NCBI GenBank assembly: GCA_965248355.1
Contig: OZ252098.1
Location: 4,160,001 to 4,224,000, forward strand
Length of the DNA: 64,000 nucleotides
Source of the DNA: Candidatus Latescibacterota bacterium
Lineage (GTDB): Bacteria > Latescibacterota > UBA2968 > UBA8231
Direction: 5' to 3'
Positions 17,530 to 33,825 of the stretch are shown here, piece after piece; position 1 is the stretch's first letter; every line of letters starts with the position of its first letter. The translations under genes and the position numbers were made by a program. The notes under the pieces were generated by a model, which was not told where the DNA came from, ran no database searches, and worked only from the letters and a program-made list of their open reading frames with translations.

Positions 17530-17634
17530 GACAGTCTCCTCGGGTAAGCGGGGCGGCCCAAGCTAGGAAAACCCGCATTGGGGGACAACGCTGGACGCAC
17601 CCGGAGAGTCCGGCTATCCTCTCCGGCCTTCGCC

Positions 17635-19188
17635 ATGACCTCGAGAACCCCACCGCCGCGCTACCGCGTCATCTTCAACTGGGACGGCGACAGCCTGGCC
17701 TACGGCGAGCATCCGCAGTCGGCGGAGCAGCTCGTGGACCACATGTACGGCTCCCTCGAGGGCACCCAGGTGGACGCCGTGTTCTGGAGCATCGGCAGCC
17801 ACGAGGCCCTCTGGCCTTCCGAGGTGCACGAGCGGGAAGGGGAGCGCACCGGCCGCGTCTACGCCTCCATGCGCGCCATGCGCCACGCCGAGAATGTGTG
17901 GAGCCTCTTCGAGGCGGGCGAGAACGTGTACCAGGCCATGGTCGAGCGCGGACATCAGCTCGGGATGCACGTCTACGTCTCGATGCGGATGAACGACAAC
18001 CACTTCTACAACACCCGTCCGCGGGAATTCAAGAAGCTCGACAAGGGCACGAAGCTGCGGCAGGACCACCCCGAGTGGCTGCTGGACGTCGACGACGTGC
18101 CCGAGAGCCGCGGCATCGGCTCCTGGAACTTCGCCCACGCCGAGGTCCGGGAGCACAAGCTCTCCTACATCAGCGAGGCCTGCGCCCTGGCCGACTGGGA
18201 CGGCGTCGAGCTCGACTGGCAGCGCCATCCCTTCCATCTGCCCCAGCACGACGGCTACCGGCTGCGCTACGTGCTCACCGACCTGCAGCGCGCCGTCCGC
18301 CGCATGGCCGACGGGATCGCGGCGGAGAAGGGGCGCCCCTTCCACGTGGCCTCGCGCGTGGCCACGACCCTCGAGTCGTGCCGGCGCATCGGCTACGACG
18401 TCCCCCGCTGGTGCAGCGAAGGCCTGTGCGACGTCCTCATCGGCGCCGGCGGCTCGTCCACCGACCCCGGCTTCGAGGTGGCCGGGTTCAGGCGCCATTC
18501 CGACGGCACCGGCATCCGCCTCTACGGCGGCTTCGACAGCTCCTACCGGCAGGAGGCCGCCCGCCTGGTGAGCCGCGTCGAGTGGCGCGAGGCCTTCTTC
18601 CGCGCCGTGGCCGCGGGTTATCTCGACGAGGGGGCGGACGGGATCTACACCTTCAACTGGTTCCCGAAGAAGGCCGACTGGACCGGGCTCCTGAGCACCC
18701 TCGGCGCCGAGGAGACCCTGCGGGGCAAGGACAAGATCTACTCGGCCCTGCGCCGCGGTCCTACCTGGCTGGACGACCCCTCGGCCAACGCCGTGAACGA
18801 CCGCATCCACGGCGAGACCTCCGTGGCGCTGATGCCCGGCCTCACCGGGGACGGACCCACCTTCACGCTCAGCTTGCACGACGACTTCTCGGCCGGGGCG
18901 CCAAGGCCGGGTTCCCTGCAGCTGCAGATCGAGATGGCCCACTGGGCGCCCGGGGACGCCGTCAAGGTCACCCTCGACGGCGAACCTCTCGGCGAGCCGG
19001 CCATCCGCGACGCGGCGGAGAGCGGCCCTCCCTACGTATCGGAGAACAAGTGGCTCCTCTGGGACCTGGATCCCGAAGGCATGGGAAAGGGTCCGCACAC
19101 CGTAAAGGTCGTCCTGATCAACCGTGACTCGCGGCTCGACCCGCCCCTCAGCGTCGAGCACGTCGACCTCCACGTGAGCTACCGGTAG
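17635..19188 (+). CDS. GHL10 (DUF187)-like TIM-barrel protein
   Basis: IFNWDG, SMRMND, HPEW, WNFAHAEVR, DGVELDW and ADGIYTFNW motifs. Confidence 0.7.
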   Translation: MTSRTPPPRYRVIFNWDGDSLAYGEHPQSAEQLVDHMYGSLEGTQVDAVFWSIGSHEALWPSEVHEREGERTGRVYASMRAMRHAENVWSLFEAGENVYQAMVERGHQLGMHVYVSMRMNDNHFYNTRPREFKKLDKGTKLRQDHPEWLLDVDDVPESRGIGSWNFAHAEVREHKLSYISEACALADWDGVELDWQRHPFHLPQHDGYRLRYVLTDLQRAVRRMADGIAAEKGRPFHVASRVATTLESCRRIGYDVPRWCSEGLCDVLIGAGGSSTDPGFEVAGFRRHSDGTGIRLYGGFDSSYRQEAARLVSRVEWREAFFRAVAAGYLDEGADGIYTFNWFPKKADWTGLLSTLGAEETLRGKDKIYSALRRGPTWLDDPSANAVNDRIHGETSVALMPGLTGDGPTFTLSLHDDFSAGAPRPGSLQLQIEMAHWAPGDAVKVTLDGEPLGEPAIRDAAESGPPYVSENKWLLWDLDPEGMGKGPHTVKVVLINRDSRLDPPLSVEHVDLHVSYR

Positions 19189-19219: not shown

Positions 19220-20758
19220 TTGGCCGAGAGACCGTACCGGATCATCTACAACTGGGATGGCGCCCCCCACCACTACGACGAGCACCCCCAGGCGATGGAG
19301 TCCTTCCTGCGGAGGGTCTATGCCCCGCTGGCCGGCACCCAGGTGGACGCCCTGTTCTGGTGCATGGGGATCCACGAGGCCACCTGGCTGTCCGACGACC
19401 TGGCCGTGAAGGGGGATTCCGCCGCCCGGGTCTACGACAGCGTGCTGGTCATGAGGGATGTCGAGAACCTGCGGTCCATGCTCGAGGGGGGCGAGGATCC
19501 GTACGCGGCCATGGTCGCCCGGGGGCGCGAGCTGGGCATCGACGTCTGGCCTTCGATCCGCATGAACGACCAGCACTTCTGGAACATCCAGGACCTGGAG
19601 ACGATGCAGCGGTCCACGGTCAACGAGATGACGGCGCTGCGCAAGGAGCATCCCCAGTGGTGTCTGGGGGAGCACGCCCCGGGCTGGTGCGCCACCTCGT
19701 GGAACATGGCCGTCCCCGAGGTGCGCGCCCACAAGCTCGAGATGATCACGCAGGCCTGCCGGCTGGCCGACTGGGACGGCGTCGAGCTGGACTGGCAGCG
19801 CCACGCCTTCCACCTGCCCGCCAACCACGAGTACCGGCTGCGCTACGCCCTCACCGACCTGCAGCGGGCCGTGCGCGAGATGACCCGGGGGCTGGCCGAG
19901 GAGCGGGGCCGGCCCTTTCCCGTGGCCGTCCGCGTCGCCGCCACCCTGGAGTCCTGCCGGCGCGTCGGCTACGACATCGAGACCTGGGTCGAGGAAGGCC
20001 TGTGCGACATCCTCATCGGCGGCGGCAACTCCGGCACCGATCCGTGCTTTGAAACGGAGGAATTCCTGAGACTGGTGGAGGGCACCCAGATCCAGGTCTA
20101 TCCGGGCTTCGACTTCGACACCCGGCAGCAGGCTGACCGCCTGATCCCCCACGGCCGCTGGCGGGACCGCTGGTTCGCCGGCATGGCGCAGGGCCACCTC
20201 GACCGCGGCGCCCACGGCATCTACGTCTTCAACTGGCACGCCGACGAGACCATGCGCCGGGAGTCGTTGACCACGATCGGTTCCACCGGGACCCTCCGCG
20301 GCCTGGACAAGGCCTACACCGCCGTGCACCGCAGCACCGGCGGGAACCCCCTGCGCAAGGACGCCGAGCGGGACGACCGCATCTACGGCGAGGCCCCCGT
20401 CGACCTGCACCGCACCCTGACCGGCGACGGCCCCACCTTCCACCTGACCACCCACGATCCCGGGGCCGCCGGCGTGCAGCTGCTGATCGAGATGGCCCAC
20501 CACTCCCCCACCGGCGACGAGGTGGCCGTAACCCTGGACGGCGCGGTTCTGGGCGCGCCCGAGGTGCGCAACCACGTAGCGGAGAATCCCCAAAACCCCG
20601 CCGACGTGGACGAGAACAGCTGGCTGGTGTGGGACCTGGATCCGGCCCAGGCCGCCTCCGGGGCCCACGAGATCCAGGTCGTCCTGCTCAAGCGGGATCC
20701 GCGGATTCGGCCGCCGCTGACGGTGGCCAACGTCGAGATCTGGACGAGCCATGACTGA
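19220..20758 (+). CDS. GHL10-like TIM-barrel protein, tandem paralog of 17635
   Basis: IYNWDG, SIRMND and ACRLADWDGVELDWQRH shared with the upstream gene; TTG start with a GGAG RBS. Confidence 0.7.
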   Translation: MAERPYRIIYNWDGAPHHYDEHPQAMESFLRRVYAPLAGTQVDALFWCMGIHEATWLSDDLAVKGDSAARVYDSVLVMRDVENLRSMLEGGEDPYAAMVARGRELGIDVWPSIRMNDQHFWNIQDLETMQRSTVNEMTALRKEHPQWCLGEHAPGWCATSWNMAVPEVRAHKLEMITQACRLADWDGVELDWQRHAFHLPANHEYRLRYALTDLQRAVREMTRGLAEERGRPFPVAVRVAATLESCRRVGYDIETWVEEGLCDILIGGGNSGTDPCFETEEFLRLVEGTQIQVYPGFDFDTRQQADRLIPHGRWRDRWFAGMAQGHLDRGAHGIYVFNWHADETMRRESLTTIGSTGTLRGLDKAYTAVHRSTGGNPLRKDAERDDRIYGEAPVDLHRTLTGDGPTFHLTTHDPGAAGVQLLIEMAHHSPTGDEVAVTLDGAVLGAPEVRNHVAENPQNPADVDENSWLVWDLDPAQAASGAHEIQVVLLKRDPRIRPPLTVANVEIWTSHD

Positions 20759-20820
20759 GGCCGTGTCGAAACCCACGTACCGCGCCGCCATCATCGGGGC
20801 CGGCCGCATGGGCGGCCTCC
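20751..20820 (+). CDS. Gfo/Idh/MocA oxidoreductase, 5' exon (interrupted by group II intron)
   Basis: MTEAVSKPTYRAAIIGAGRMGGL (Rossmann GxGxxG) plus 1 nt, followed directly by the intron 5' end GTGCG. Confidence 0.88.
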
Positions 20821-22758
20821 GTGCGCCGGTCACACCGGCGAGGTGTAAGATGTGAAAGTCATCTGTGTCGAAGGTGTAGCGAACCACGACAGCCCCGAGT
20901 CATGCGTCGGTGCGGGTAACCGTAGTGGCGAAGCGTTGGCAGGGGGAGGTGTAGGTCCGGTATTGAGCCGCGAAAGCCATGAACCACTCCGGGAGGCCGA
21001 GACGGTGGAGGACGAGCGAAGGCCATACCTGACGCTGCGATATCGCGAGCGGTGTCGGGCTCCCGCGCGGTCAGAGACCCGGTGCATGCACCCAAGCACC
21101 TCGTGCGGGAACCGGGAGGTCCCGCGCCTGGCCCGGCCGGATGGCGGCCGGGTCCGCAAAAGGAACCCGTTCAGGGGACACTGGCGATGAACGGGCGCGG
21201 GAAGTCGGACAGCCCCATAGTACCTGCGAAGCCCTCGAACCAAGGCCGCGCGGCTGCGACGCGGCCGGCGGAGGGGGTGGAGGGAAGGGGGGGTTGCCCA
21301 AGGGCAACTCGGGCGAGCCCACCAGGTCCCGGACGCAGAGCCGGTCCGACCTGCAACAAGCGCTTGACCGGGTGCGCCAGGCAGCGGTTCGAGATCGGAA
21401 GGGGCAGTTCACGGCGCTCTGGCACCACGTCTACTGTGTGGATCGTCTCCGGCAGGCCTACTTCGGCCTGAAGCGCAACGCCGCCCCGGGGGTGGACCGC
21501 GTGACGTGGCACAGCTACGGCGAGGATCTGGAGGCGAACCTGACAGATCTGTCGGCGCGGCTGCGACGCGGAGCCTATCGAGCCCGGCCGGTGAGGCGGA
21601 CCTACATCCCGAAAGCGGATGGACGGCCGCGGCCCCTCGGCGTGACCGTGCTGGAGGACAAGATCGTCCAGCGGGCCACCGTGGAGGTGCTCAACGCCGT
21701 GTACGAGGCCGACTTTCTCGGATTCAGCTACGGTTTCCGCCCGGGACGCTCGCCGCACATGGCGCTGGACGCGCTGGCGGTGGGGATCCAGCAGCGGAAG
21801 GTGAACTGGGTGCTGGACGCAGACCTTCGTGGCTGCTTTGACGCCATCGACCACGATTGGCTGATGAAGTTCGTCGAGCACCGGATCCGCGACCGGCGCG
21901 TCCACCGCCACCTGAAGAAGTGGCTGAAGGCGGGCGTGCTGGAAGAGGGGCAGTGGCGGCAGGTGGAGGCGGGCGTGCCTCAGGGGTCCAGTGTAGGCCC
22001 TTTGTTGGCCAACGTCTACCTGCACTACGCCTTCGACCTGTGGGCCCAGGACTGGCGGCGGCGGCACGCGAGCGGGGACGTGGTCCTCGTGCGCTTCGCC
22101 GACGACATCGTCTGTGGGTTTCAGCAACGGTCGGATGCCGAACGCTTCCAAGCCGAGTTTCGCGTACGCCTGGCGAGGTTCGGCCTGGCGGTGAACCCCG
22201 AGAAGACGCGCCGGGTCGAGTTCGGCCGCTTTGCGGCGGCCAATCGACGGCGGCGCGGCGAGGGGAAACCCGAGACCTTCCACTTCCTCGGCTTCACGCA
22301 CAGTTGCGACAAGACGAAGAAGGGGAGGTTCATCGTGCTTCGGCAGACCCAGAAGACGCGCATGCGGCGCAAGCTGAAGGAGGTGAAAGCCGAACTTCGG
22401 CGACGGCTGCATGACCCCGTAGACGACGTAGGAGCGTACCTGCGGAGCGTGGTGGTCGGGCACTTCCGTTACTATGGGGTGCCTCGTAACGGTCCGGCGT
22501 TGAGCTCGTTCCGCCATGCCGCGGTCTGGCTGTGGTGGCGTAGCCTTGCAGCGACGGACCCAGCGTCACCGATCGCATCGCAAGCTCCTGCGGCGTTTCC
22601 GCGTATGGGTCGCGCACTTCATCCCCTCGGCGCATATCCTCCAGCCCTATCCCGAGCAGCGCCTGCGCGTCATGACCCAAGGGAGGAGCCCAGTGCGCTA
22701 ACCGCGCTCGCTGGGATCTGTGGAGGGGGCTGTGGGCAACCATGGTCCCTACTCCGAC
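20821..22758 (+). mobile_element. Group II intron copy 1 (En-minus bacterial type, probably class E/D-like)
   Basis: 5' GTGCG; domain V GAGCCCAGTGCGCTAACCGCGCTCGCTGGGATC; domain VI ending CCCTACTCCGAC; encodes an RT/maturase. Class assignment is tentative. Confidence 0.93.
21187..22701 (+). pseudogene. ltrA: Group II intron reverse transcriptase/maturase with two frameshifts
   Basis: APGVD, YIPKADG..RPLG, SYGFRPGRS, GVPQGS, RFADD and FLGF motifs. Relative to copy 2 it has two extra G at ~21287-21293 and one extra base at ~22547. Confidence 0.88.
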
Positions 22759-23692
22759 TTACGCTTCCGCTTCGATTTCGTCGATGAGTTCCTTGAGACG
22801 AGCATAGTTCGTCCGCATCGCATCGACGGGGGAACCACCGGGGGGACGGAAATGGGTCGCCACCGCCAGCACCGCGTCGCATCGGTAGTCGCGCAATTGA
22901 CGCAGGACCGCTCTGAAATCCACATCCCCATCGCCGATGGGACGGTACTCGAATTGCAGATGCTCACCATCGGCGAGGTGCAGGTCCTTTGATGTGGAGC
23001 CCGTGCAGATATGGCCGCACATTGTCGAAACCGGCAGAGGTCACATCCGCCTCGCCGCAGTTGAGGTTGTCGGCCGGACCCCACATGACCTTGATTCTCG
23101 GTGAGCCGACGCTTTCCGCAACGCGCCGGAAGTTCCCGGTCGTGTTGGTGTAATTCCAGGGCATCATGGAGAGGGCAACATCGACGTCGTATTTCTCGGC
23201 TTGCTCCACGACCAGCGAGAACGCCTTCACCAGTTTCTCCATATCCGCATCGGCGATGATGCCACCGCGGGTGTGCCAGCGCATCGGCCAAGTGGGCTTG
23301 CCGCCGCCGTACTCCCCGGGCCAGGCAAAGGTGAACGAACAGACAGCGCCGACTCCCAGGCGGGAGGCGATCTGCATCGCGCGGACCAGATTGTCGAAGT
23401 CACAGCGGAATTCCGGATGCTCCTGCATCCCATCCAGGTCGAGCTCGGTCAGGTGCACCTTCTTGAACGAGTTTTCCGCCGCTATGAGGTGGAGCTTGAG
23501 GCCGTGGTTGGACACGCGGGCAGCCATGTCGTCTACCTGGGCATCGGTCATTTCGGCGATCGGGGTCTCATCGCGCAAGCGCGGGAACCAGACGTACTCG
23601 GCACCGATATCCTTCGCCGTAGCCAGGGCCTGGTCAAAGGGCAGGTCCAATTCGGGTAAGTACATGCCGAGCTTGAACCGGTAATCTGCCAT
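22759..23692 (-). pseudogene. Sugar phosphate isomerase/epimerase (xylose isomerase-like TIM barrel), frameshifted
   Basis: HGLHIK continues in a second frame as DLHL...PIGDGDVDF; extra A at ~22988-22990. The TAA stop abuts the intron 1 3' end. Confidence 0.8.
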
Positions 23693-23811
23693 CAGTTACC
23701 TCCTGAACGTAGTGGGTGAAGACGCCGATCAGGTCGCAATTGCTCCCTCCTGTTCAAGCTAGCGTTTGAAATTGAATCGCCCCGAGTTTTCCGGAGACTC
23801 GGTTGTTTGAG

Positions 23812-25034
<1,223 letters not shown>

Positions 25035-25210
25035 GACTCCAATCCTCTCAAGAAATGGAGCCTCCGGCAACCCCGGGGCGGTTCACTCGACGGGAGGCGA
25101 GGGTTTTGGTGACTTCGCCTCTCACGAGGGTCAGTTGATCCTCAACCGGGATCGCACCTGGCCGCGGGCGGGAATGCGCCTACGGCCGCGAGGGGACTGA
25201 GCCTCGATCG

Positions 25211-25245
25211 GAGGCGAGGGCTTCGGCTCTCGCCTCTTTCTTGTT
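25211..25245 (+). terminator. Probable intrinsic terminator
   Basis: Stem GAGGCGAGGGC/GCTCTCGCCTC with a TTCG loop, followed by TTTCTTGTT. Confidence 0.55.
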
Positions 25246-25257
25246 CTGCCCACGGAC

Positions 25258-25469
25258 CGACAGACCGATACGAGTGCAGAGCTTGCTGTGAGGGCTTTGT
25301 GCAGGGAAGTTGGATTGGCCTATCGGATCAGCAACCGTGACCTTCCTGGAAGCCCAGACATAGCCAACCGATCCAAGAAATGGGCGATCTTCGTCAACGG
25401 ATGTTTCTGGCATGCCCACCGGAACTGCCGTCGCCTTGCCCCGGGCCGCGACCACACGCCAAGGACTAA
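25258..25469 (+). pseudogene. vsr: Very short patch repair endonuclease fragment
   Basis: RQTDTSAELAVR...LPGSPDI...FVNGCFWHAH; cut at the ISAzo13 end. Confidence 0.8.
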
Positions 25470-26766
25470 GGCTTTGTCCCGAAACAGATGATTCACTTCA
25501 ACCCTCAGTGGCCGGCCGGATCGTGTAGTTCCAATCCCCGTGGAACGCATGGGGCGAGAGATGGATCCGCTCCATTTGCTCGTCCTTGACGACCACGGCC
25601 TTGGGATACGCTCGCTTGTCGATCTCGGCGCGCACGCGAAGCCCTTTCTTCGTTGTCGTCCGGCCGATCAGGTTGACTACCGTGGCCAGACTGACCAGAG
25701 GTTGGCCTCGCCAGTTCATGGCGATATAGGAGAACAGGCGATGCTCGATGCGGTTCCACTTGCTCGTGCCCGGAGGATAGTGGCAGACCGTGATCGTCAG
25801 GCCCGTGCGATCGGCCAAGCGCTGCCATTCCCATTTCCACAGCCGCAGTCTCGGACCGTTGCGGCCCCCCGCATCGGCCGTGATCCACAGGTGCGAGGCC
25901 GCCGGGTAGGCCGGACGACCCATGCGTTTCCACCAGCTGCGGATGGCGTTCACCGCGAAGTGGGCGGTGTCGTGGTCGACGCCGACGCTGACCCAGCCCT
26001 CGTTGCGGCCCAGGTCGTAGACCCCGTAGGGAATCGCCTGGCCCTGGGCCGGGATGATGAAGTCGTGGACCTTCACGCGCTCCGGCTCGCCCTTCGGACG
26101 CCATTGGCGACCCACGTTCTTGAAGTCGCCGATCAGCTCCTTCTTCTTGGTGTCCACCGAAATGACCGGCTGGCCTTGGGCCTGGGCCCTTCGGACCTGG
26201 TCGTGGAGGTAGTGAAACGGGGCGTCCCGATCCGGGTGTTGCGTGCCTTCTTTCGTCTTGCGATTCGCCTGCAGCGTGTAGCCGAGCTCGTGCAACAGTC
26301 CGTGGACGAGGCCAGGACTCACCGAATGGCCCAGGGCCTGCAACTCGACCGCCAACTTGCGGACGCTCTTCGACGTCCATCGCAAGGGGCTGTCGTCCGG
26401 CGCCCCGGCGGTGACCGGCTCGAGCAGGGCGTTGAGGTCCGACAACAGCGTCACGTCGGTGTCGACGCGCCGCTTGCGGCCGCCGCCCGGCCGACGCACA
26501 CGGCCGGAGTCCAACGGGGCGTCCGACCGCAGTTCCTGCAGGCCGCGAGCGATCCGGGTCCGCGACAGGCCCGTCGCACGGGCCACCACCGCAATGCCGC
26601 CATGTCCCAGGGCTTGCGCCTCCGACGCGGCCCACAAGCGTCGCGTGCGCTCGTTCAACACCGGCGTCAAGGCTTCGTATTTCGCCCGCAGGGTGCTTTC
26701 CGTGTCCACCCGTCAAGGATAACACCTTTCTATCAGAAAGAACAGCGTTTATTTCTGCGCAGTGCC
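25470..26766 (-). mobile_element. ISAzo13 family insertion sequence
   Basis: Imperfect inverted repeats GGCTTTGTCCCGAAACAGA / GGCACTGCGCAGAAATAAA with TAA on both sides. Confidence 0.85.
25498..26709 (-). CDS. ISAzo13 family transposase
   Basis: LNERTRRLWAASEA, WTSKS, ISVDTKKKEL, PPGTSKWNRIEHRLF and FHGDWNYTI motifs. Confidence 0.93.
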   Translation of the reverse strand: MDTESTLRAKYEALTPVLNERTRRLWAASEAQALGHGGIAVVARATGLSRTRIARGLQELRSDAPLDSGRVRRPGGGRKRRVDTDVTLLSDLNALLEPVTAGAPDDSPLRWTSKSVRKLAVELQALGHSVSPGLVHGLLHELGYTLQANRKTKEGTQHPDRDAPFHYLHDQVRRAQAQGQPVISVDTKKKELIGDFKNVGRQWRPKGEPERVKVHDFIIPAQGQAIPYGVYDLGRNEGWVSVGVDHDTAHFAVNAIRSWWKRMGRPAYPAASHLWITADAGGRNGPRLRLWKWEWQRLADRTGLTITVCHYPPGTSKWNRIEHRLFSYIAMNWRGQPLVSLATVVNLIGRTTTKKGLRVRAEIDKRAYPKAVVVKDEQMERIHLSPHAFHGDWNYTIRPATEG

Positions 26767-27014
26767 TAAGTGGTTGATTGCGTTACGTGGTCCGGCAGCG
26801 GTGACCCGACGAAGATGATGTCGACATCGCTGCCCAGGAGATCCTCGAACCGGGTATAGGCCTGGGGAATATTGTACCTGTCGGCGATGGGCCGAACGGT
26901 CTCTTCGTGGCGGGTGCAGAACGCCGCCACCTCCGTCTCCGGCATCACCCTGAAACACTGGAGTGCCCCTTCCCCGCGCTTGCCCACGAATCCGACCTTG
27001 AGTGGCAGGTTCAT
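26767..27014 (-). pseudogene. Gfo/Idh/MocA oxidoreductase N-terminal fragment truncated by ISAzo13
   Basis: LKVGFVG...YTRFEDLL..DVDIIFVGSP..H, ending at the IS boundary. Confidence 0.8.
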
Positions 27015-28048
27015 CAGACGTTGTCTCCAAACTGTTCGATGCTGGCCGGCAACTCGCCATCGGGCAGGTAGAAGTCCGCGCTCAAATCTACGGCGACCGG
27101 CTGATTGGTCTGCATCGCTTCCACCGCTTTTTCGACGATGAGCGTGGGGATGCAGGCTTCCCAAACATCCATGGGGCTTTCACCACCGTCAAGGCAGTAC
27201 TTCGCAAACATCTCCATCTCTTCATCGAAGCCGTTGTGATAGGCATTCTCTTCGATGCCAGGCTCATCGGTTCCCTGGAAGATGAGATTGCCAAAGCGGA
27301 CGGTCGCGGCGCTGATCGGTCCGGCCATGACCTCGGCGTAATGCTTGGGCAGATATCCACCCTGGCCGACGACGCCGTACACGGAGGTGGCGAGCCCGCC
27401 GTTGGCGAAACGGATATTGATAGTGCTGGTGTTGCTCGGTTCACCACCGTACCCCATGGCGTTGATTTCGACCGGCTGTGAACGCATGACATGCCAGATC
27501 CAGTGGAGGTTGTAACCGGCCGCATCGAGTACGCCATTGCACCCCAGGGGCCCCTCGGGATCATTCGGTTTGGCGTTCTCGTAGCGCGTGCTCGAGAGTC
27601 GGCACAGGAACAGGACGAAATACGGTTGAGGGATGACCTCGCGCAGTCGTTTGGTAACCGGTGAGTGTTTGAACCACCAGCCACCCATGAGCTTGACTCC
27701 TGACTCGTGGACGGCCTGCTGCAGACGCCGGGCTTCGTCGAGGGTGATGGCCAACGGTTTCTCGGCGTAGATGTGCTTGCCGGCGGCGCAGGCGTCGATC
27801 GCTATCTCGGCGTGGGTATCGTGAGTCGAGAAGATGAGGACCGCATCGATGGAATCGTCCGCGAGGACGCGCTCCATGTCGGTGGTGTGGTAGGAGGCGC
27901 CGTACTCCTCCGCACGACGTCGAGCAGCCTCTTCCGAGATGTCCATGGTGGCGACCAGGTGCATGTCGGGTGACTCGAGCACCCTTGGCAGGTGGGCGCC
28001 GCTTATTCCGCCGCAGCCGATGGCGGCCACATTGAGACGGGTGGTCAT
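27014..28048 (-). CDS. Gfo/Idh/MocA oxidoreductase
   Basis: IGCGGI, AGKHIYAEKPLA. Confidence 0.9.
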   Translation of the reverse strand: MTTRLNVAAIGCGGISGAHLPRVLESPDMHLVATMDISEEAARRRAEEYGASYHTTDMERVLADDSIDAVLIFSTHDTHAEIAIDACAAGKHIYAEKPLAITLDEARRLQQAVHESGVKLMGGWWFKHSPVTKRLREVIPQPYFVLFLCRLSSTRYENAKPNDPEGPLGCNGVLDAAGYNLHWIWHVMRSQPVEINAMGYGGEPSNTSTINIRFANGGLATSVYGVVGQGGYLPKHYAEVMAGPISAATVRFGNLIFQGTDEPGIEENAYHNGFDEEMEMFAKYCLDGGESPMDVWEACIPTLIVEKAVEAMQTNQPVAVDLSADFYLPDGELPASIEQFGDNV

Positions 28049-28189
28049 GACAGCTCCGTGCGCCGGCTAAACCGGCGAGGTGTAAGATGTGAGAGTCATC
28101 TGTGTCGAAGGTGTAGCGAACCACGACAGCCCCGAGTCATGCGTCGCGTCGGGTAACCGACGAGGCGAAGCGTTGGCAGGGGGAGGTGT

Positions 28190-29585
28190 GAGGTCGTGTC
28201 AAAAGGTGTGTAAACGAGATCAGGCGGCCCTCTTGTTCCCTTCCCTGGTAGAGGCGTCCTCTTGGATCGGTTTTCCGTCCTGGTATCTCCGACCGGCGTA
28301 GACCGCCGGCAGGAGCTCGGGCGCGTTGAGCTTGCGGAATCGTGTCTCGGCCACCCTCAGCAGGCGCCAGATGAGGGCGGTGGCCCCCTGGACTCGCTTG
28401 TAGCGCTTGCCCGCGTTGGTCCGCAGACGGACCGAGGCAAAGGGGCTCTCCACCGGGTTCGTCGTTCGCAGATGTTTCCAGTGCGCCTCCGGGAAATCGT
28501 AAAACGTGACCATGCGATCCCAGTCGCGCTCGAGGGTGGCCGCCGCGGCCGGATAGGCCTCGCCGTAGCGAGCCACGAAGCGATCGCGTCGTCTCTGGGC
28601 TTGCTGACGGGTCTTGGCCGTGGGGATCTGCGTCAGCAGCGCCCGGGCGGCGCCCTGCACGCGCTTGGGCAGGTCGTCGAGGACGTTGAGGATCTTGTGA
28701 TTCCAGCAGCGCTGCTGCGCGGCCTCGGGCCAGACCTGGTCGACGGCGCTCCAGATCGGCAGGCCGCCATCGGCCAGCATCAGGCGCGGCGCCGGCAGCC
28801 CGCGGTCGCGAAGATCGCGCAGCACGGCTCGCCACGACTCGGTGGACTCGCGATGGCCGGGCCGTATCGCCAGGATCTCCTTGCGGCCGTCGCTCAGGGC
28901 CCCGATGACGACCAGCAACGCCGCCTTGTCCTTCTCCAGGCCGGCCTTCACGTAGATGCCGTCGGCCCAGGCGTAGACCAACTCCCGGTCGTCCAGGCGC
29001 CGCTGCTGCCAGGTCTCGAACTGCTCTTCCCAGGTGGCCCGCAGACGGGCGATGGACGAGGGCGACAGAGGCGCCCCGTCGCCCAGCAGGCCCCGCAAGG
29101 CCAGCTCGAAGTCGCCCTGCGACAGCCCGTGCAGGTAGAGTTCGGGCAGCAGCCGGGTCACCTCCTGCGTGCGTCGCTGGAACAGCGGCAGGATGCGGCT
29201 CTCAAAGCGCTCCTCCAGGCCTCGAATCCGCGGCCGTCTCACCTCGATGGGGCCCGACATCAGCGCCAGCCGCCGCGGCTTGCCGTAGCCGTTGCGCGAG
29301 CCCGGGGCGTCCACCGCCGACCGGCGCGCATACCGCGTACGCCCGAGCGCTTCGGTCACCTCCTCCTCCAGGATCCGCTGCAGCAGGTCCTGGATCCAGC
29401 CCCGGACCCATCCTTCCAAGGTCTCCCAGGTGGGCATGGACGCGCGGGGGATCTCCAACATAGATTCCTTCACGGCGACTCTCTCCTTCCAAGCCCGGCG
29501 TCATCCGGGCGGTTTGTGGTGTGCTGCTAAAATAGGAAGGGTAGGGTCGCCTTTTCTCTTTTTCCACACCTTTCGATAGTAACTC
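28190..29585 (-). mobile_element. IS256 family insertion sequence inside intron 2 domain I
   Basis: 25-bp imperfect inverted repeats (GAGGTCGTGTCAAAAGGTGTG / GAGTTACTATCGAAAGGTGTG); 8-bp target duplication GGAGGTGT at 28182-28189 and 29586-29593. Confidence 0.95.
28220..29473 (-). CDS. IS256 family transposase
   Basis: RNGYG, WADGIY, ESTESW, LADGG, QRCWNH and RTTNPVES motifs. Confidence 0.93.
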   Translation of the reverse strand: MKESMLEIPRASMPTWETLEGWVRGWIQDLLQRILEEEVTEALGRTRYARRSAVDAPGSRNGYGKPRRLALMSGPIEVRRPRIRGLEERFESRILPLFQRRTQEVTRLLPELYLHGLSQGDFELALRGLLGDGAPLSPSSIARLRATWEEQFETWQQRRLDDRELVYAWADGIYVKAGLEKDKAALLVVIGALSDGRKEILAIRPGHRESTESWRAVLRDLRDRGLPAPRLMLADGGLPIWSAVDQVWPEAAQQRCWNHKILNVLDDLPKRVQGAARALLTQIPTAKTRQQAQRRRDRFVARYGEAYPAAAATLERDWDRMVTFYDFPEAHWKHLRTTNPVESPFASVRLRTNAGKRYKRVQGATALIWRLLRVAETRFRKLNAPELLPAVYAGRRYQDGKPIQEDASTREGNKRAA

Positions 29586-30030
29586 GGAGGTGTAGGTCCG
29601 GTATTGAGCCGCGAAAGACATGAACCACTCCAGGGGGCCGAGACGCTGGAGACCGAACGAAGGCCATATCCGGCGCCGCGATATCGCGAGTGGCGCTGGG
29701 CCCCTGCGCGGTCAGAGACCCGGAGCATGCACCCAAGCACCTCGTGCGGGAGCCGGGAGGTCCCGCGTCTGGCCCCGGTCGATGGCGACGGGGTCCGCAA
29801 AGGGAACCCGAATAGGGGATACCGGCGATGAACGGGCGCGGGAAGTCGGACTGCTCCGCAGTACCTGCGAGCCGGAAGTGTACCCCGTCAACTGGACAGG
29901 AATTGGGCTTGTACAAGCGAGAGTCTCGAGATGTAATGGAGCCGTACTGCGCCCCGGCGCTGGGACCGAAGCCCCGCCTCCCGGACTTGCACCCAGGCCG
30001 GGCCACCGAGGCCGTGAGGAGCCCCCGCGC

Positions 30031-30858
30031 TCAGGCCGCCCGGTGGTAGACATCGCTGGGGGTCTCGTAGTCGAAGGCCTGGTGCGGCCGCTCGAGGTTG
30101 TAGAAGCGGAAGTAGGCCGCCACGCCCTCGATCAACTCGGGGACGCTGTCGTAGGCCTTCAGGTAGATGTCCTCGTACTTCAGGGAGCGCCACAGCCGCT
30201 CGATGAAGATGTTGTCCAGCACCCGGCCGCGGCCGTCCATGCTCACCCGGGCCCCGGCCGCCTCGACCCGCCCGGTGAAGGCGGTGCTGGTGAACTGGGC
30301 CCCCTGGTCGGTGTTGAAGATCTCCGGCCGCCCCTGGCTCAGGGCTTCCTCCAGGGCCTCCAGGCAGAAGGCCGCGTCGAGGGTGTTGGAGACCCGCCAG
30401 GCCAGCACGTAGCGGCTGAACCAGTCCATGACCGCCACCAGGTAGACGAAGCCGGAGGGCATCGGCAGATAGGTGATGTCGCTGCACCACACCTGGTCCG
30501 GCCGGTTCACGGTCACCCCTCGCAGCAGATACGGATAGACCCGGTGCTGAGGGTTGGGGGTAGTCGGTCGCGGCCGGGGATAGATCGCCTGCAGGCCCAG
30601 GGCCTTCATCAGGCGGTGCACGCGCTTGGGATTGACCGGGTAGCCGTCCCGCCTCAGGGCCGCGCAGATCCGGCGCACGCCGTAGACCGGGTGCTCGGTG
30701 TAGATCCGGTCGATGGCGTTCATCAGGTCGAGGGTGAGCCGATCCGGCGCCTCCGGGCGGTAGTAGAAACTGGAGCGGGCCAGCCCGAGCAGTTGGCACT
30801 GCCGATGCACGCTCAGCGGGCCGGGGTGCGGCTCGATGAGGGCGCGGCGCTCAGCCAC
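30031..30858 (-). CDS. IS3 transposase OrfB
   Basis: [30 protein letters not shown] and [11 protein letters not shown] motifs. Confidence 0.92.
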
Positions 30859-31145
30859 CGAGAGCCTCGTGTTTTTTTTGAAGCCACTCCAGTTCCATCT
30901 GCAGCCGCCCGATCTGCTGGTAGAGCTCGGGCACCAAGGCGGCCTCGTCGTCGGCCCGGCGGGTCCCGGGGCCCCGGAAGACCTCGGGCAGCCGCTCCAG
31001 CAACTGCTTCTTCCAGCCGTGGATCTGGCTGGGGTGGACGGAGAACTTGTGGGCCAGCTCGTTGACTGTCTGCCGTTCGCGCAGAGCCTCCAAGGCCACC
31101 TTGGCCTTGAACTGCGCCGAATGCGTCTTGCGTTTCCTCGTCATC
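30851..31145 (-). CDS. IS3 transposase OrfA
   Basis: [14 protein letters not shown] and [15 protein letters not shown] motifs; start position approximate. Confidence 0.88.
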
Positions 31146-32746
31146 CAAGCCCCTCCGGACAGTGGGTCGGTGGACGCAAAGTCTCGCTTAGCCACCTGTC
31201 CAGGATTTGGGGTACACTACCGCCCTCGAACAACGGCGGCGTGGCTGTCACGGCGCCGGCGGAGGGGGTGGAGGGAAGGGGGCAGCCCAAGGGCAACTCG
31301 GGGGAGCAAACCAGGTCCCGGGCGCAGATCCGGAGCGACCTGCAACATGCGCTCGACCGGGTACGTCAGGCAGCGGAACGTGATAGGGAACAGCAGTTTG
31401 CGGCGCTCTGGCACCACGTCTACCACGTTGACCGACTTCGGGAGGCCTACCTCGGCCTCAGGCGCAAGGCCGCACCGGGGGTGGACGGCGTGACGTGGCA
31501 CAGCTACGGGAAGGATCTGGAGGCGAACCTGACAGATCTCTCGTTGCGGCTGCAACGCGGAGCGTACCGAGCCAAGCCGGTGAAGCGGACCTACATCCCG
31601 AAGGAGGATGGACGGCAGCGGCCCCTCGGCGTGACCGTGCTGGAAGACAAGATCGTCCAGCGCGCCACCGTGGAGGTGCTCAACGCCGTGTACGAGGTCG
31701 ACTTTCTCGGTTTCAGCTATGGTTTCCGCCCGGACCGCTCGCCGCACATGGCGCTGGACGCGCTGGCGGTGGGCATCCAGCAGCGGAAGGTGAACTGGGT
31801 GATCGACGCGGACATTCGAGGTTGCTACAATGCCATCGACCACGAGTGGCTGATGAGGTTCGTCGAGCACCGGGTGAGCGACCGGCAGGTCCGGCGGCAC
31901 ATCAAGAAGTGGCTGAACGCCGGGGTGCTGGAAGAAGGGGAGTGGCGGCGAGCGGAGGAAGGTGTGCCGCAGGGCTCCAGTGTCGGGCCCTTGCTGGCCA
32001 ACGTCTACCTCCACTACGCCTTCGACCTGTGGGTCCAGGACTGGCGTCGACGGCACGCGCGCGGGGATGTGGTGCTCGTACGCTTCGCCGACGACATCGT
32101 CTGCGGGTTTCAGCACCGGTCGGATGCCGAGCGCTTCCAGGCCGAGTTTCGCGCGCGACTGGCGAAGTTCGGTCGGGAACTGAACCCCGAGAAGACGCGC
32201 CTGATCGAGTTCGGCCGCTTTGCGGTGGAGAATCGACGACGGCGCGGCGACGGGAAGCCCGAGACCTTCAACTTCCTCGGCTTCACGCACAGCTGCGACA
32301 AGACGAGGAAAGGGAAGTTCATCGTGCTTCGGCAGACCCAGAAGAAGCGCATGCGGCGCAAGCTGAGGGAGGTGAAAGCCAGACTTCGGCAACGGCTGCA
32401 TGATCCCGTCGAGGAGGTGGGGGTGTACTTGCGCAGCGTGGTGACCGGGCACTTCCGCTACTACGGAGTGCCCCGCAATGGCCCGGCGTTGACCTCGTTC
32501 CGGCATGCCGTGGTTCGCCTGTGGGGACGCAGTCTTCAGCGCCGCAGCCAACGCCACCGCTCGCAGCGCAGGCTGCGCCGCCGCTTCTGGCGATGGGTGG
32601 ACCGCTTCATCCCTTCGGCGCGTATCCTCCAACCGTATCCCGAGCAGCGCCTGCGAGTCATGACCCAAGGGAGGAGCCCAGTGCGTTAACCGCGCTCGCT
32701 GGGATCTGTGGAGGGGGCTGTGGGTAACCATGGTCCCTACTCCGAC

Positions 32747-33825
32747 TCGAGGATGAGCAGCCGCCGAACACCTTCCGCAAGCCCCACGGCCATTTCGCCG
32801 CCTACGCCGCCATCGACCAGACGGAGGTGGTGGCCGTGGCCGGCCGCCGGCCGGGCCGGCTGAAGATGTTCACCGAGCGCTTCGGCATCGCGAAGACCTA
32901 TCTCGATTACCGCGAGATGATCGAGAAGGAGAAGCCGGACATCGTCAGTGTCACCACCCAGGCCCGGTTCCGCGCCGAGGCGATCCTCTTCGCCGTCGAG
33001 CACGGGGTCCGCGGCATCTACGCCGAGAAGGCCCTGTGCGCCTCCCTGGCCGAGGCGGATGCCATCGCCGCGGCCTGCCGCTCGAAGGGGGTGGCCTTCA
33101 ACTTCGGCGCCGAGCGTCGTTACCACGACGGGTACGTGCGTCTGCGCCAGGCCATCGAGCGCGGCGACATCGGCCAGCCGCAGTTCGCCTTCACCTTCTG
33201 GTGCACCGATCTCATGAAGCACCACTCCCACTCCTTCGACACCGTGGCCATGCTCCTCGGGGACCCGGCGCCGGTCTGGGTGGAAGGCCGTCTCGTGGAG
33301 CCGGGCGGTCCCCTCGATCCCGGGCAGAGCCGCATGGGACCCCGCGAAGGGGACGAGATGACCCGCCAGCCCCTGCCGATCCCGGCCTACGATCCGGAGG
33401 GCCACCGCTTCGTTCCCCCGGAGGGCACGCGCTATGCCGAGCCGGTTCTCGAATTCGCCCGCGTGGGCTACGCCGACGGCACCGAGTCCGTCTTCGTGCC
33501 CCGGCTGGGAGCGACCGAGTTCGAGGTTCACGGCGACGAGGGGCGCGTCTGCGCCTGGGACGGCGGCGAGGACTTCCGCGTGCGGCGCAGATCCAATGGC
33601 GGCCACGTGGAGGAGGTGATCCGGCCCGGGGGCGAGAGCCCGACGGTCCTCATCATCCGCGAGATCGTCCGCGAGCTGGAGACGGGGCAGCGCACCAGCG
33701 GCCACATCGACCGCACCCTGCAGTCGGCCGAAGCCGAGTTCGCCGCGGCCCATTCCCACCTGCAGGGCGGCGCCCGGGTCTCGGTGCCCGTGGAGGACCG
33801 CAGCCTTTACATCCCCGGCCATTGA
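32747..33825 (+). CDS. Gfo/Idh/MocA oxidoreductase, 3' exon
   Basis: Joined to 20751-20820 it reads ...GRMGGL-L-EDEQPPNTFRKPHGHFAAY...KPDIVSVTT...IYAEKAL, giving 1149 nt in frame. Confidence 0.88.

Follow-up and report, generated by a model that had tools for sequence, protein, structure and literature searches.

The usual view takes group II introns to be single-unit retroelements and ascribes their effects on genome structure to recombination between copies. Here we describe an 11,926-bp insert (positions 20821-32746) within a 64,000-nt stretch of the genome of a Candidatus Latescibacterota bacterium (contig OZ252098.1; the whole stretch is hereafter called the window), which splits a Gfo/Idh/MocA-family sugar dehydrogenase gene, G, and is bracketed by two related group II introns. 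The closest described systems compare with this locus as follows. In Staphylococcus pseudintermedius, a pSP-G3C4-like plasmid lies in the chromosome between two reverse transcriptase (RT) genes of group II introns (PMC12540322); as at our locus, the foreign DNA has a group II intron on either side, the expected product of intron exchange. Unlike that plasmid, the insert described here has arms that are 13% apart, belong to two sublineages and show no visible crossover; its cargo has no remaining replication or mobilisation genes, and its outer flanks are the halves of one gene. The Octomom region of Wolbachia has group II introns on both sides and is lost as a unit, leaving one copy (PMC13719037), and an 80-kb duplication in Mesotoga has group II introns at its sides (PMC3516359). 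In both, as proposed here, directly repeated introns are recombination substrates around a gene block, but those cases concern the loss or duplication of resident genes, whereas here foreign genes sit at an intron target within a gene. Tandem and twintron arrangements (PMC12584367, PMC4424553) likewise reuse one target; tandem copies, however, abut (...CGAC followed directly by GTGCG), whereas 5.3 kb of non-intron DNA separates the two introns of the insert.

Intron-exchange recombination is a known type of event, and the insert is most likely a decayed product of recombination rather than a working new kind of transposon. Specifically, we propose that an intron resident in G recombined with an intron on foreign DNA and that the product then decayed, an account that we consider evenly poised between right and wrong because the two arms show no chimerism. 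Composite transposons based on insertion sequences (IS) move by transposase-driven DNA transposition acting on their outer inverted ends. The insert resembles them in that two terminal mobile elements bracket a cargo at a single target site, but its ends are ribozymes in direct orientation and its mobility is unproven. Leon and Roy, as cited in PMC3001079, are said to have hypothesised in 2009 that genes could be joined or packaged by introns inserted at their boundaries in antisense orientation; that hypothesis differs in concerning another intron class and other targets (attC or terminators).

A dehydrogenase gene split by an insert with two terminal introns

Deletion of 20821-32746 rejoins the two parts of G exactly and restores a 382-aa open reading frame (ORF). 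The insert is bounded on each side by an intron and an exon, and the right-hand intron is itself interrupted by two IS elements, one of them within the gene for the intron-encoded protein (IEP):

20751-20820, plus strand: exon 1 of G, 23 codons plus 1 nt (70 nt), matching homolog N termini
20821-22758, plus strand: intron 1 (lineage a), 1,938 nt, identified by Rfam RF02005 (174.9 bits), Pfam RVT_1, a fold of domains 5 and 6 (D5/D6) and covariation of exon-binding site 1 (EBS1)
28058-28189, plus strand: intron 2 (lineage b), part 1, nt 1-132
28190-29585, minus strand: IS256-family element that interrupts domain I of intron 2; its 8-bp duplication, GGAGGTGT, occupies 28182-28189 and 29586-29593
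29586-29873, plus strand: intron 2, part 2, including the second copy of the IS256 duplication
29874-31221, minus strand: IS3-family element within the first part of the IEP gene of intron 2; its 3-bp duplication, GCC, occupies 29871-29873 and 31222-31224
31222-32746, plus strand: intron 2, part 3, with the remaining IEP (...TQGRSPVR; NCBIfam TIGR04416, 340.9 bits, cut-off 300), D5 and D6
32747-33825, plus strand: exon 2 of G, from its translation and homologs

Exon 1, whose start overlaps the stop of the ORF upstream (ATGA), ends in ...GGCGGCCTCC and is translated as MTEAVSKPTYRAAIIGAGRMGGL; exon 2 goes on with (L)EDEQPPNTFRKPHGH. With the exon 2 product as query, 348 proteins were found at E ≤1e-60. 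Seven of the eight G homologs that were fetched (377-382 aa) read uninterrupted across the junction as ...GR(M/I)GGL(L/M)EDE..., and the eighth, P0143, is a 331-aa truncated call. An earlier sequence-only reading of this DNA had set the insert between a 5' GTGCG and a 3' ...CCGAC and had given the same exon limits; direct reading of the junctions shows these to be right, and the precise fusion into a 382-aa G that it foresaw is the junction that the seven homologs read through. G is split in the strain that carries the insert and is inactivated there; on the recombination account, the insert is now inherited passively. Directly upstream of G lie two paralogous ORFs, 17578-19188 and 19220-20758 (512-536 aa), with stretches that are 75% identical; neither has a Pfam or NCBIfam match, and the second overlaps the start of G.

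Exon 1 is followed by intron 1 and then by the end of a cargo gene for a TIM-barrel sugar phosphate isomerase/epimerase (TIM); at the other side, the start of a second Gfo/Idh/MocA gene (Gfo2) is followed by intron 2 and then by exon 2. Two related terminal introns thus bracket the cargo in direct orientation, and both outer flanks come from one target site. The sequence-only reading had proposed one host flank and one cargo flank for each intron, and this is what is seen at all four junctions. Direct copies that each have one flank of either kind are the signature of an exchange between a resident and an incoming intron.

Both introns have the canonical group II ends (5' GTGCG, 3' ...CCCTACTCCGAC): intron 1 begins with GTGCG at 20821 and ends in ...CTACTCCGAC at 22758, and intron 2 begins with GTGCG at 28058 and ends in ...CCGAC at 32746. 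The Rfam group-II-D1D4-6 model (RF02005; gathering score 49) matches intron 1 at 20855-21080 with 174.9 bits and intron 2 in two pieces, 28092-28222 and 29576-29721, with 88.2 and 83 bits. BLAST of intron 1 against the window returns intron 2 as three collinear pieces whose gaps are the two IS elements; without them, intron 2 measures 1,934 nt. In intron 1, D5 lies at ~22685-22719 and D6 at ~22721-22756, and the fold of 22672-22758 gives a D5-like hairpin and a D6 with a bulge at -9/-8 (-42.1 kcal/mol, z -2.73); the Rfam D5-D6 model gave no match at E ≤0.1. The IEP of intron 1, native frame 21187-22701, is an RT/maturase (Pfam RVT_1), and protein-family searches reported no HNH or other endonuclease family for it; its intron class is established only as endonuclease-less (En-less) with an Rfam D1D4-6 match. 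In both introns the IEP stop codon falls inside the D5 loop (22699-22701 and 32687-32689), such that the coding sequence overlaps the catalytic hairpin.

Both arms are defective, and the locus holds no uninterrupted, potentially active intron copy. The IEP gene of intron 1 carries two frameshifts (+TT at 21294-5 and +C at 22544), and that of intron 2 has a 1-nt deletion at the point of IS3 insertion. The frameshifts in the intron 1 IEP and in TIM all lie at short base runs and may be sequencing errors; relatives or sister assemblies are intact at these genes (frameshifts at 21294-21295, 22544 and ~22975). Elsewhere in the window, neither the introns nor any of the insert's four IS elements recur. 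The two introns are identical at 1,685 of 1,938 aligned columns (86.9%), and the 253 differences are evenly spread; the two are direct repeats, as the sequence-only reading had it, but not near-identical ones.

The chance that this structure is an assembly artefact, with a single intron in G and the cargo misplaced by repeat-driven misjoining, seems to us very slight. Repeated mobile elements do often break assemblies, and short base runs hold three of the four frameshifts (one in TIM, two in the IEP of intron 1), which suggests some sequencing error; but arms that differ at 253 columns are not collapsible repeats, and other assemblies carry parts of the same arrangement. There, linkage of proteins means that they are listed on contigs of the same size, which is suggestive but not proof of adjacency:

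5,569,580-base contig: truncated G, intact TIM, Gfo2 and b-type IEP
57,720-base contig: truncated G, Gfo2 and a 482-aa b-type IEP
8,273-base contig: truncated G and b-type IEP
302,043- and 2,684,416-base contigs: TIM, Gfo2 and neighbour genes of G
2,814,621-, 2,827,147- and 2,893-base contigs: intact 378-aa G, with no cargo protein listed

Against an artefact speak the 57,720-base contig, with truncated G, Gfo2 and b-type IEP together, the 8,273-base contig, with truncated G and b-type IEP, and the TIM variant P0122, which in another assembly reads through from TIM into the intron 3' end; the junction between TIM and intron therefore exists in an assembly other than ours. The exact Gfo2 protein, P0269, is found on 8 contigs. 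Truncated G calls could in principle be alternative start choices, and over its last 325 residues P0267, an intact allele of G, shows no difference from the truncated P0143. The sequence-only reading had advised a search of related genomes; by their protein listings, some other assemblies appear to share the insert and others have an empty site. We rejected the idea that the 2,684,416- and 2,814,621-base contigs are halves of one genome, with G intact and the cargo elsewhere, since both carry neighbour genes of G.

Intron lineages and the position of a proposed exchange

In the recombination account, a lineage-a intron with an En-less RT/maturase would have entered G in the sense orientation, after ...CATGGGCGGCCTCC and before T. 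A lineage-b intron would have resided on foreign DNA of lower G+C, antisense, directly between the ribosome-binding site (RBS) of Gfo2 and the stop codon of TIM. One reciprocal exchange between a and b, within the last ~60 nt (D5-D6), would then have put the foreign DNA inside G, with the product exon 1-a-cargo-b-exon 2; the donor would have been circular or tandemly repeated, or the exchange would have been the outer crossover of a double exchange. The decay that would have followed can be read from the locus as it stands: intron b contains two IS elements with target duplications; in the cargo are two more that lack duplications, together with a truncated third Gfo/Idh/MocA gene (Gfo3) and a fragment of a Vsr endonuclease gene; and TIM and the intron-a IEP are frameshifted. 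The fit of intron 1 EBS1 to exon 1 and the foreign G+C of the cargo are consistent with recombination. In its favor, too, the cargo proteins are co-listed in other assemblies with truncated G, with the b-type IEP or with neighbours of G, and not on the intact-G contigs of 2,814,621 and 2,827,147 bases.

Relatives of the introns were sought by a scan of genome contigs with the IEP as query, which returned 79 loci, none from the window's genome. The closest by IEP are L004 (91% protein identity, on a 3.2-kb contig) and L001 (85%, on a 2.3-kb contig), both with intact IEPs of 503 aa. At the DNA level, intron 1 is 93.8% identical to L004 and intron 2 is 94.7% identical to L001, versus 86-87% in all cross-comparisons. 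When introns 1 and 2 (IS elements removed), L004 and L001 were aligned, columns 10-1878 held 142 sites that join intron 1 with L004 and intron 2 with L001, 3 sites with the opposite pairing and 7 sites that join introns 1 and 2 with each other. By these sites the arms represent two different sublineages, a (intron 1) and b (intron 2), and neither is chimeric. Among the other relatives, L022 (9134-12947) and L024 (5672-11396) contain tandem head-to-tail copies (...CGCGAC followed by GTGCGCC), and in L024 one copy is also nested in the RT gene of another (5' end 6535, 3' end 8445). Searches of the intron DNA against plasmids gave matches at 64-68% identity only.

These alignments also supplied what the sequence-only reading had recommended, a search for a crossover point between the two introns, and none was found from nt 10 to 1878. 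Since the arms are non-chimeric over that interval, any exchange must lie within the last 60 of 1,938 nt, and this restriction weakens simple recombination and keeps the idea of unit mobility alive. Several points weigh against the account that we favor. A crossover inside the introns should leave arms that are reciprocal chimeras, and the repeats are not (142 versus 3 sites). The last 60 nt, the only interval that allows an invisible crossover, has no exceptional length: it ranks eighth among the intervals without lineage-fixed differences and makes up ~3% of the intron; with a length-minus-25 weighting its share is ~6.6%. Homology between the arms is only 87%. Neither the donor locus (Gfo2-b-TIM) nor a circular form nor a single-intron allele of G has been observed among the sequences at hand, and that TIM and Gfo2 lay side by side in the donor is itself inferred.

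Purity of the arms is what would be expected if the insert had moved as a unit. Here, lineages a and b, each antisense before an RBS, would have bracketed a donor operon, and an RNA that began at the 5' end of a and extended to the 3' end of b would have entered G, either by reverse splicing as one giant intron or by RT template switching onto a long precursor. Such a route predicts what is observed: two arms of separate lineages without chimerism, exact outer junctions at one target and outer ends in agreement with EBS1 pairing. The a and b forms of D5-D6 differ at 1 of the 60 final nt, so a hybrid core would be compatible, and the relatives L022 and L024 make tandem and nested copies. Yet each intron would normally splice alone first, the arrangement proposed for the donor is hypothetical, neither arm is still functional, and no second site of the unit was found in the IEP-query scan (79 loci, the two closest on contigs of 2-3 kb). 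A group II lariat of at least 6.5 kb with whole foreign genes between two complete introns has, to our knowledge, no precedent. Our literature searches gave recombination cases only and no gene-carrying unit mobility, although tandem integration has been demonstrated experimentally for another intron (PMC12584367). On balance we regard movement as a unit as improbable. The sequence-only reading had likened the introns to the ends of a composite transposon or cointegrate: the cointegrate is the best explanation of the locus, and the composite transposon remains conjectural, with no second site found and both introns defective.

Apparent target recognition at complements of gene starts

How the introns choose their sites bears on where the cargo ends. 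Domain I was aligned for 20 family members, after the aberrant copy L027 had been dropped, and pairings were counted on 16 non-redundant introns. A terminal loop in domain I covaries with the 5' flank and is EBS1 (GGAGGA at 21007-21012 in intron 1). In 12 of the 16 introns it forms an unbroken run of 5 or more pairs with the intron's own flank, counted from position -1, versus 8% of 224 mismatched combinations. The EBS1 of intron 1 (GGAGGA) forms 5 pairs with exon 1 and 4 with its cargo flank; that of intron 2 (GGAGAC) forms 4 with either flank. A putative EBS2, CCATGA in lineage a (20977-20982) and ACATGA in lineage b, can pair with (T)CATG further upstream, but this pairing is statistically weak (11 of 16 versus 40% of controls).

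The 5' flanks of intron 2, L001, L004, L075 and L069 read (T)CAT-N-CTCC, the complement of an RBS followed by ATG, and their 3' flanks begin with T. These sites lie at 28040-28057 in the window, ~90-110 in L001, ~1165-1189 in L004, ~9485-9508 in L075 and ~120-141 in L069. When the site of intron 1 is included, six targets can be compared: that of intron 2 is a verified gene start (Gfo2), that of L075 starts a 191-aa ORF, those of L001 and L069 have a frame that stays open to the contig end, and those of L004 and intron 1 are look-alikes only. The G site, ...CATGGGCGGCCTCC before T, is such a look-alike of the clade target, within the coding region. Judging from these flanks, members of the clade appear to sit, as a tendency, antisense and directly upstream of gene starts; our literature search found no description of a target preference of this kind.

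A target that is the complement of RBS and start codon would explain the sharp ends of the cargo; it counts in favor of the recombination account, and the two accounts that start from a pre-bracketed donor draw on it as well. For movement as a unit, the preference of the clade would explain why an operon is bracketed from its own RBS to the RBS of the next gene. Alternatively, the operon would already have been bracketed in the donor by a and b at separate antisense-RBS sites and would then have been transferred by recombination: a resident intron would have taken part in a double crossover or in gene conversion, or a break at the intron target would have been repaired via short CTCC homology. 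Sharp cargo ends follow from two independent insertions of a clade with an RBS target, a resident intron of lineage a would keep the left arm pure, and the foreign G+C of the cargo fits as well. Nevertheless, the right-hand exchange is still confined to the last 60 nt of b, more events are called for than in a single exchange, and the donor has not been seen, so that we hold this transfer to be unlikely, if less so than movement as a unit. With a donor bracketed in advance, as in both of these accounts, the arms are pure by construction.

Variation in G itself touches the target. Three intact G alleles, P0141, P0267 and P0268, fall in the window's 90% cluster; at the M codon of GRMGGL in exon 1 (~20806-20808), P0141 and P0268 have GRIGGL and P0267 keeps M, as far as the proteins tell. 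A change from M to I in this motif may remove CATG, the putative intron-binding site 2 (IBS2).

Cargo composition, decay and significance

The cargo spans 5.3 kb (22759-28057), with all of its genes on the minus strand. Its G+C of 0.57-0.67, compared with 0.66-0.72 in the flanking genome, suggests a foreign origin. It consists of:

22759-23692, minus strand: TIM-barrel sugar phosphate isomerase/epimerase gene (Pfam PF01261)
23773-25085, minus strand: IS3-family element; an ALIL frameshift pseudoknot lies at 24640-24756
25086-25454, plus strand: debris, with a truncated Vsr endonuclease fragment at ~25255-25422 and terminator-like hairpins
25455-26789, minus strand: ISAzo13-family element, transposase 25498-26709 (PF07592, 451 bits; NF033519, 562 bits)
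26790-27014, minus strand: Gfo3', a Gfo/Idh/MocA gene of which the first ~75 codons are left, cut by the IS element
27014-28048, minus strand: Gfo2, an intact 344-aa Gfo/Idh/MocA oxidoreductase gene (Pfam PF01408)

The sequence-only reading had described ~5.3 kb of metabolic genes and IS; the size is right, and the content is mostly IS elements and damaged genes. It had not mentioned the two IS elements in intron 2, the 13% divergence of the introns or the coincidence of the cargo ends with a stop codon and an RBS. At the left end, the native TAA stop of TIM (22759-22761) abuts the 3' end of intron 1; at the right end, the GGAG RBS of Gfo2 (28054-28057, opposite strand) abuts the 5' end of intron 2. 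Joined on the coding strand, the inner flanks read ...GAAGCGTAA/GGAGCTGTCATG (TAA/GGAGCTGTCATG), an ordinary stop/RBS/start junction, which is equally the product of two separate insertions of the clade at two gene starts. A transposon-like 5-bp target duplication (CTCCT) around the cargo was considered and dismissed, as the cargo lacks terminal inverted repeats and is bounded by a native stop codon and an RBS. We likewise set aside an inversion between intron copies in inverted orientation, since the arms would then be inverted repeats, whereas they are direct.

Damage extends through the cargo interior. TIM is frameshifted here by one extra A in an A-run near 22975, and intact 310-aa forms (P0002, P0124), ending in ...EIEAEA, occur in sister assemblies. 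The cargo IS3 element has inverted ends of ~24 nt and no target-site duplication (flanks AAT and CTC). Between it and the ISAzo13-family element lie the Vsr fragment, which matches Pfam PF03852 at E 3.5e-17 over profile positions 16-71 of 74, and two similar G+C-rich hairpins (25094-25130 and 25210-25237), the second followed by a T-rich tail; promoter and terminator scans found nothing beyond shuffled expectation. The ends of the ISAzo13-family element are approximate, with no evident target duplication, and the breakpoint in Gfo3 was set against P0444, a full-length relative (383 aa, 94% identical) that diverges after ...PLPDHV, exactly at the start of the IS element. The start of Gfo3' overlaps the stop of Gfo2 (TGATG). 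Truncated Gfo3 proteins in other assemblies (P0442, P0443) have the same breakpoint, ...DHVTQSTT, and then a different continuation, YRLKP... (joint 26771-26789); the cargo interior thus appears to differ between strains that share the Gfo3 truncation.

An IS3 element without target duplication and a truncated Gfo3 together indicate a joint of internal rearrangement within the cargo, possibly one of closure or deletion in the recombination account. If the 80 nt upstream of TIM encoded the lost C terminus of Gfo3, the cargo would be a single contiguous operon; the 26-codon open frame there (...LRPDRRLHPLRSGGN) bears no resemblance to the C terminus of P0444 (...VDVPNFRES), a mismatch that speaks neither for nor against this idea. 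Neither TIM, Gfo2, Gfo3' nor the product of G exon 2 had a tblastn match among the 79 fetched intron loci, and TIM against plasmids gave only matches that are 24-27% identical.

Collectively, the locus offers a clear case from nature in which foreign genes have settled within a gene, at an intron target, and its lineage-informative sites provide an internal test that speaks against an ordinary mid-intron crossover. Guide sequences that read the complement of RBS and ATG would place this clade of introns at gene starts, on the opposite strand. If the insert did move as a unit, it would amount to a composite retrotransposon built on ribozymes, one that can capture bacterial genes and carry them to new sites.

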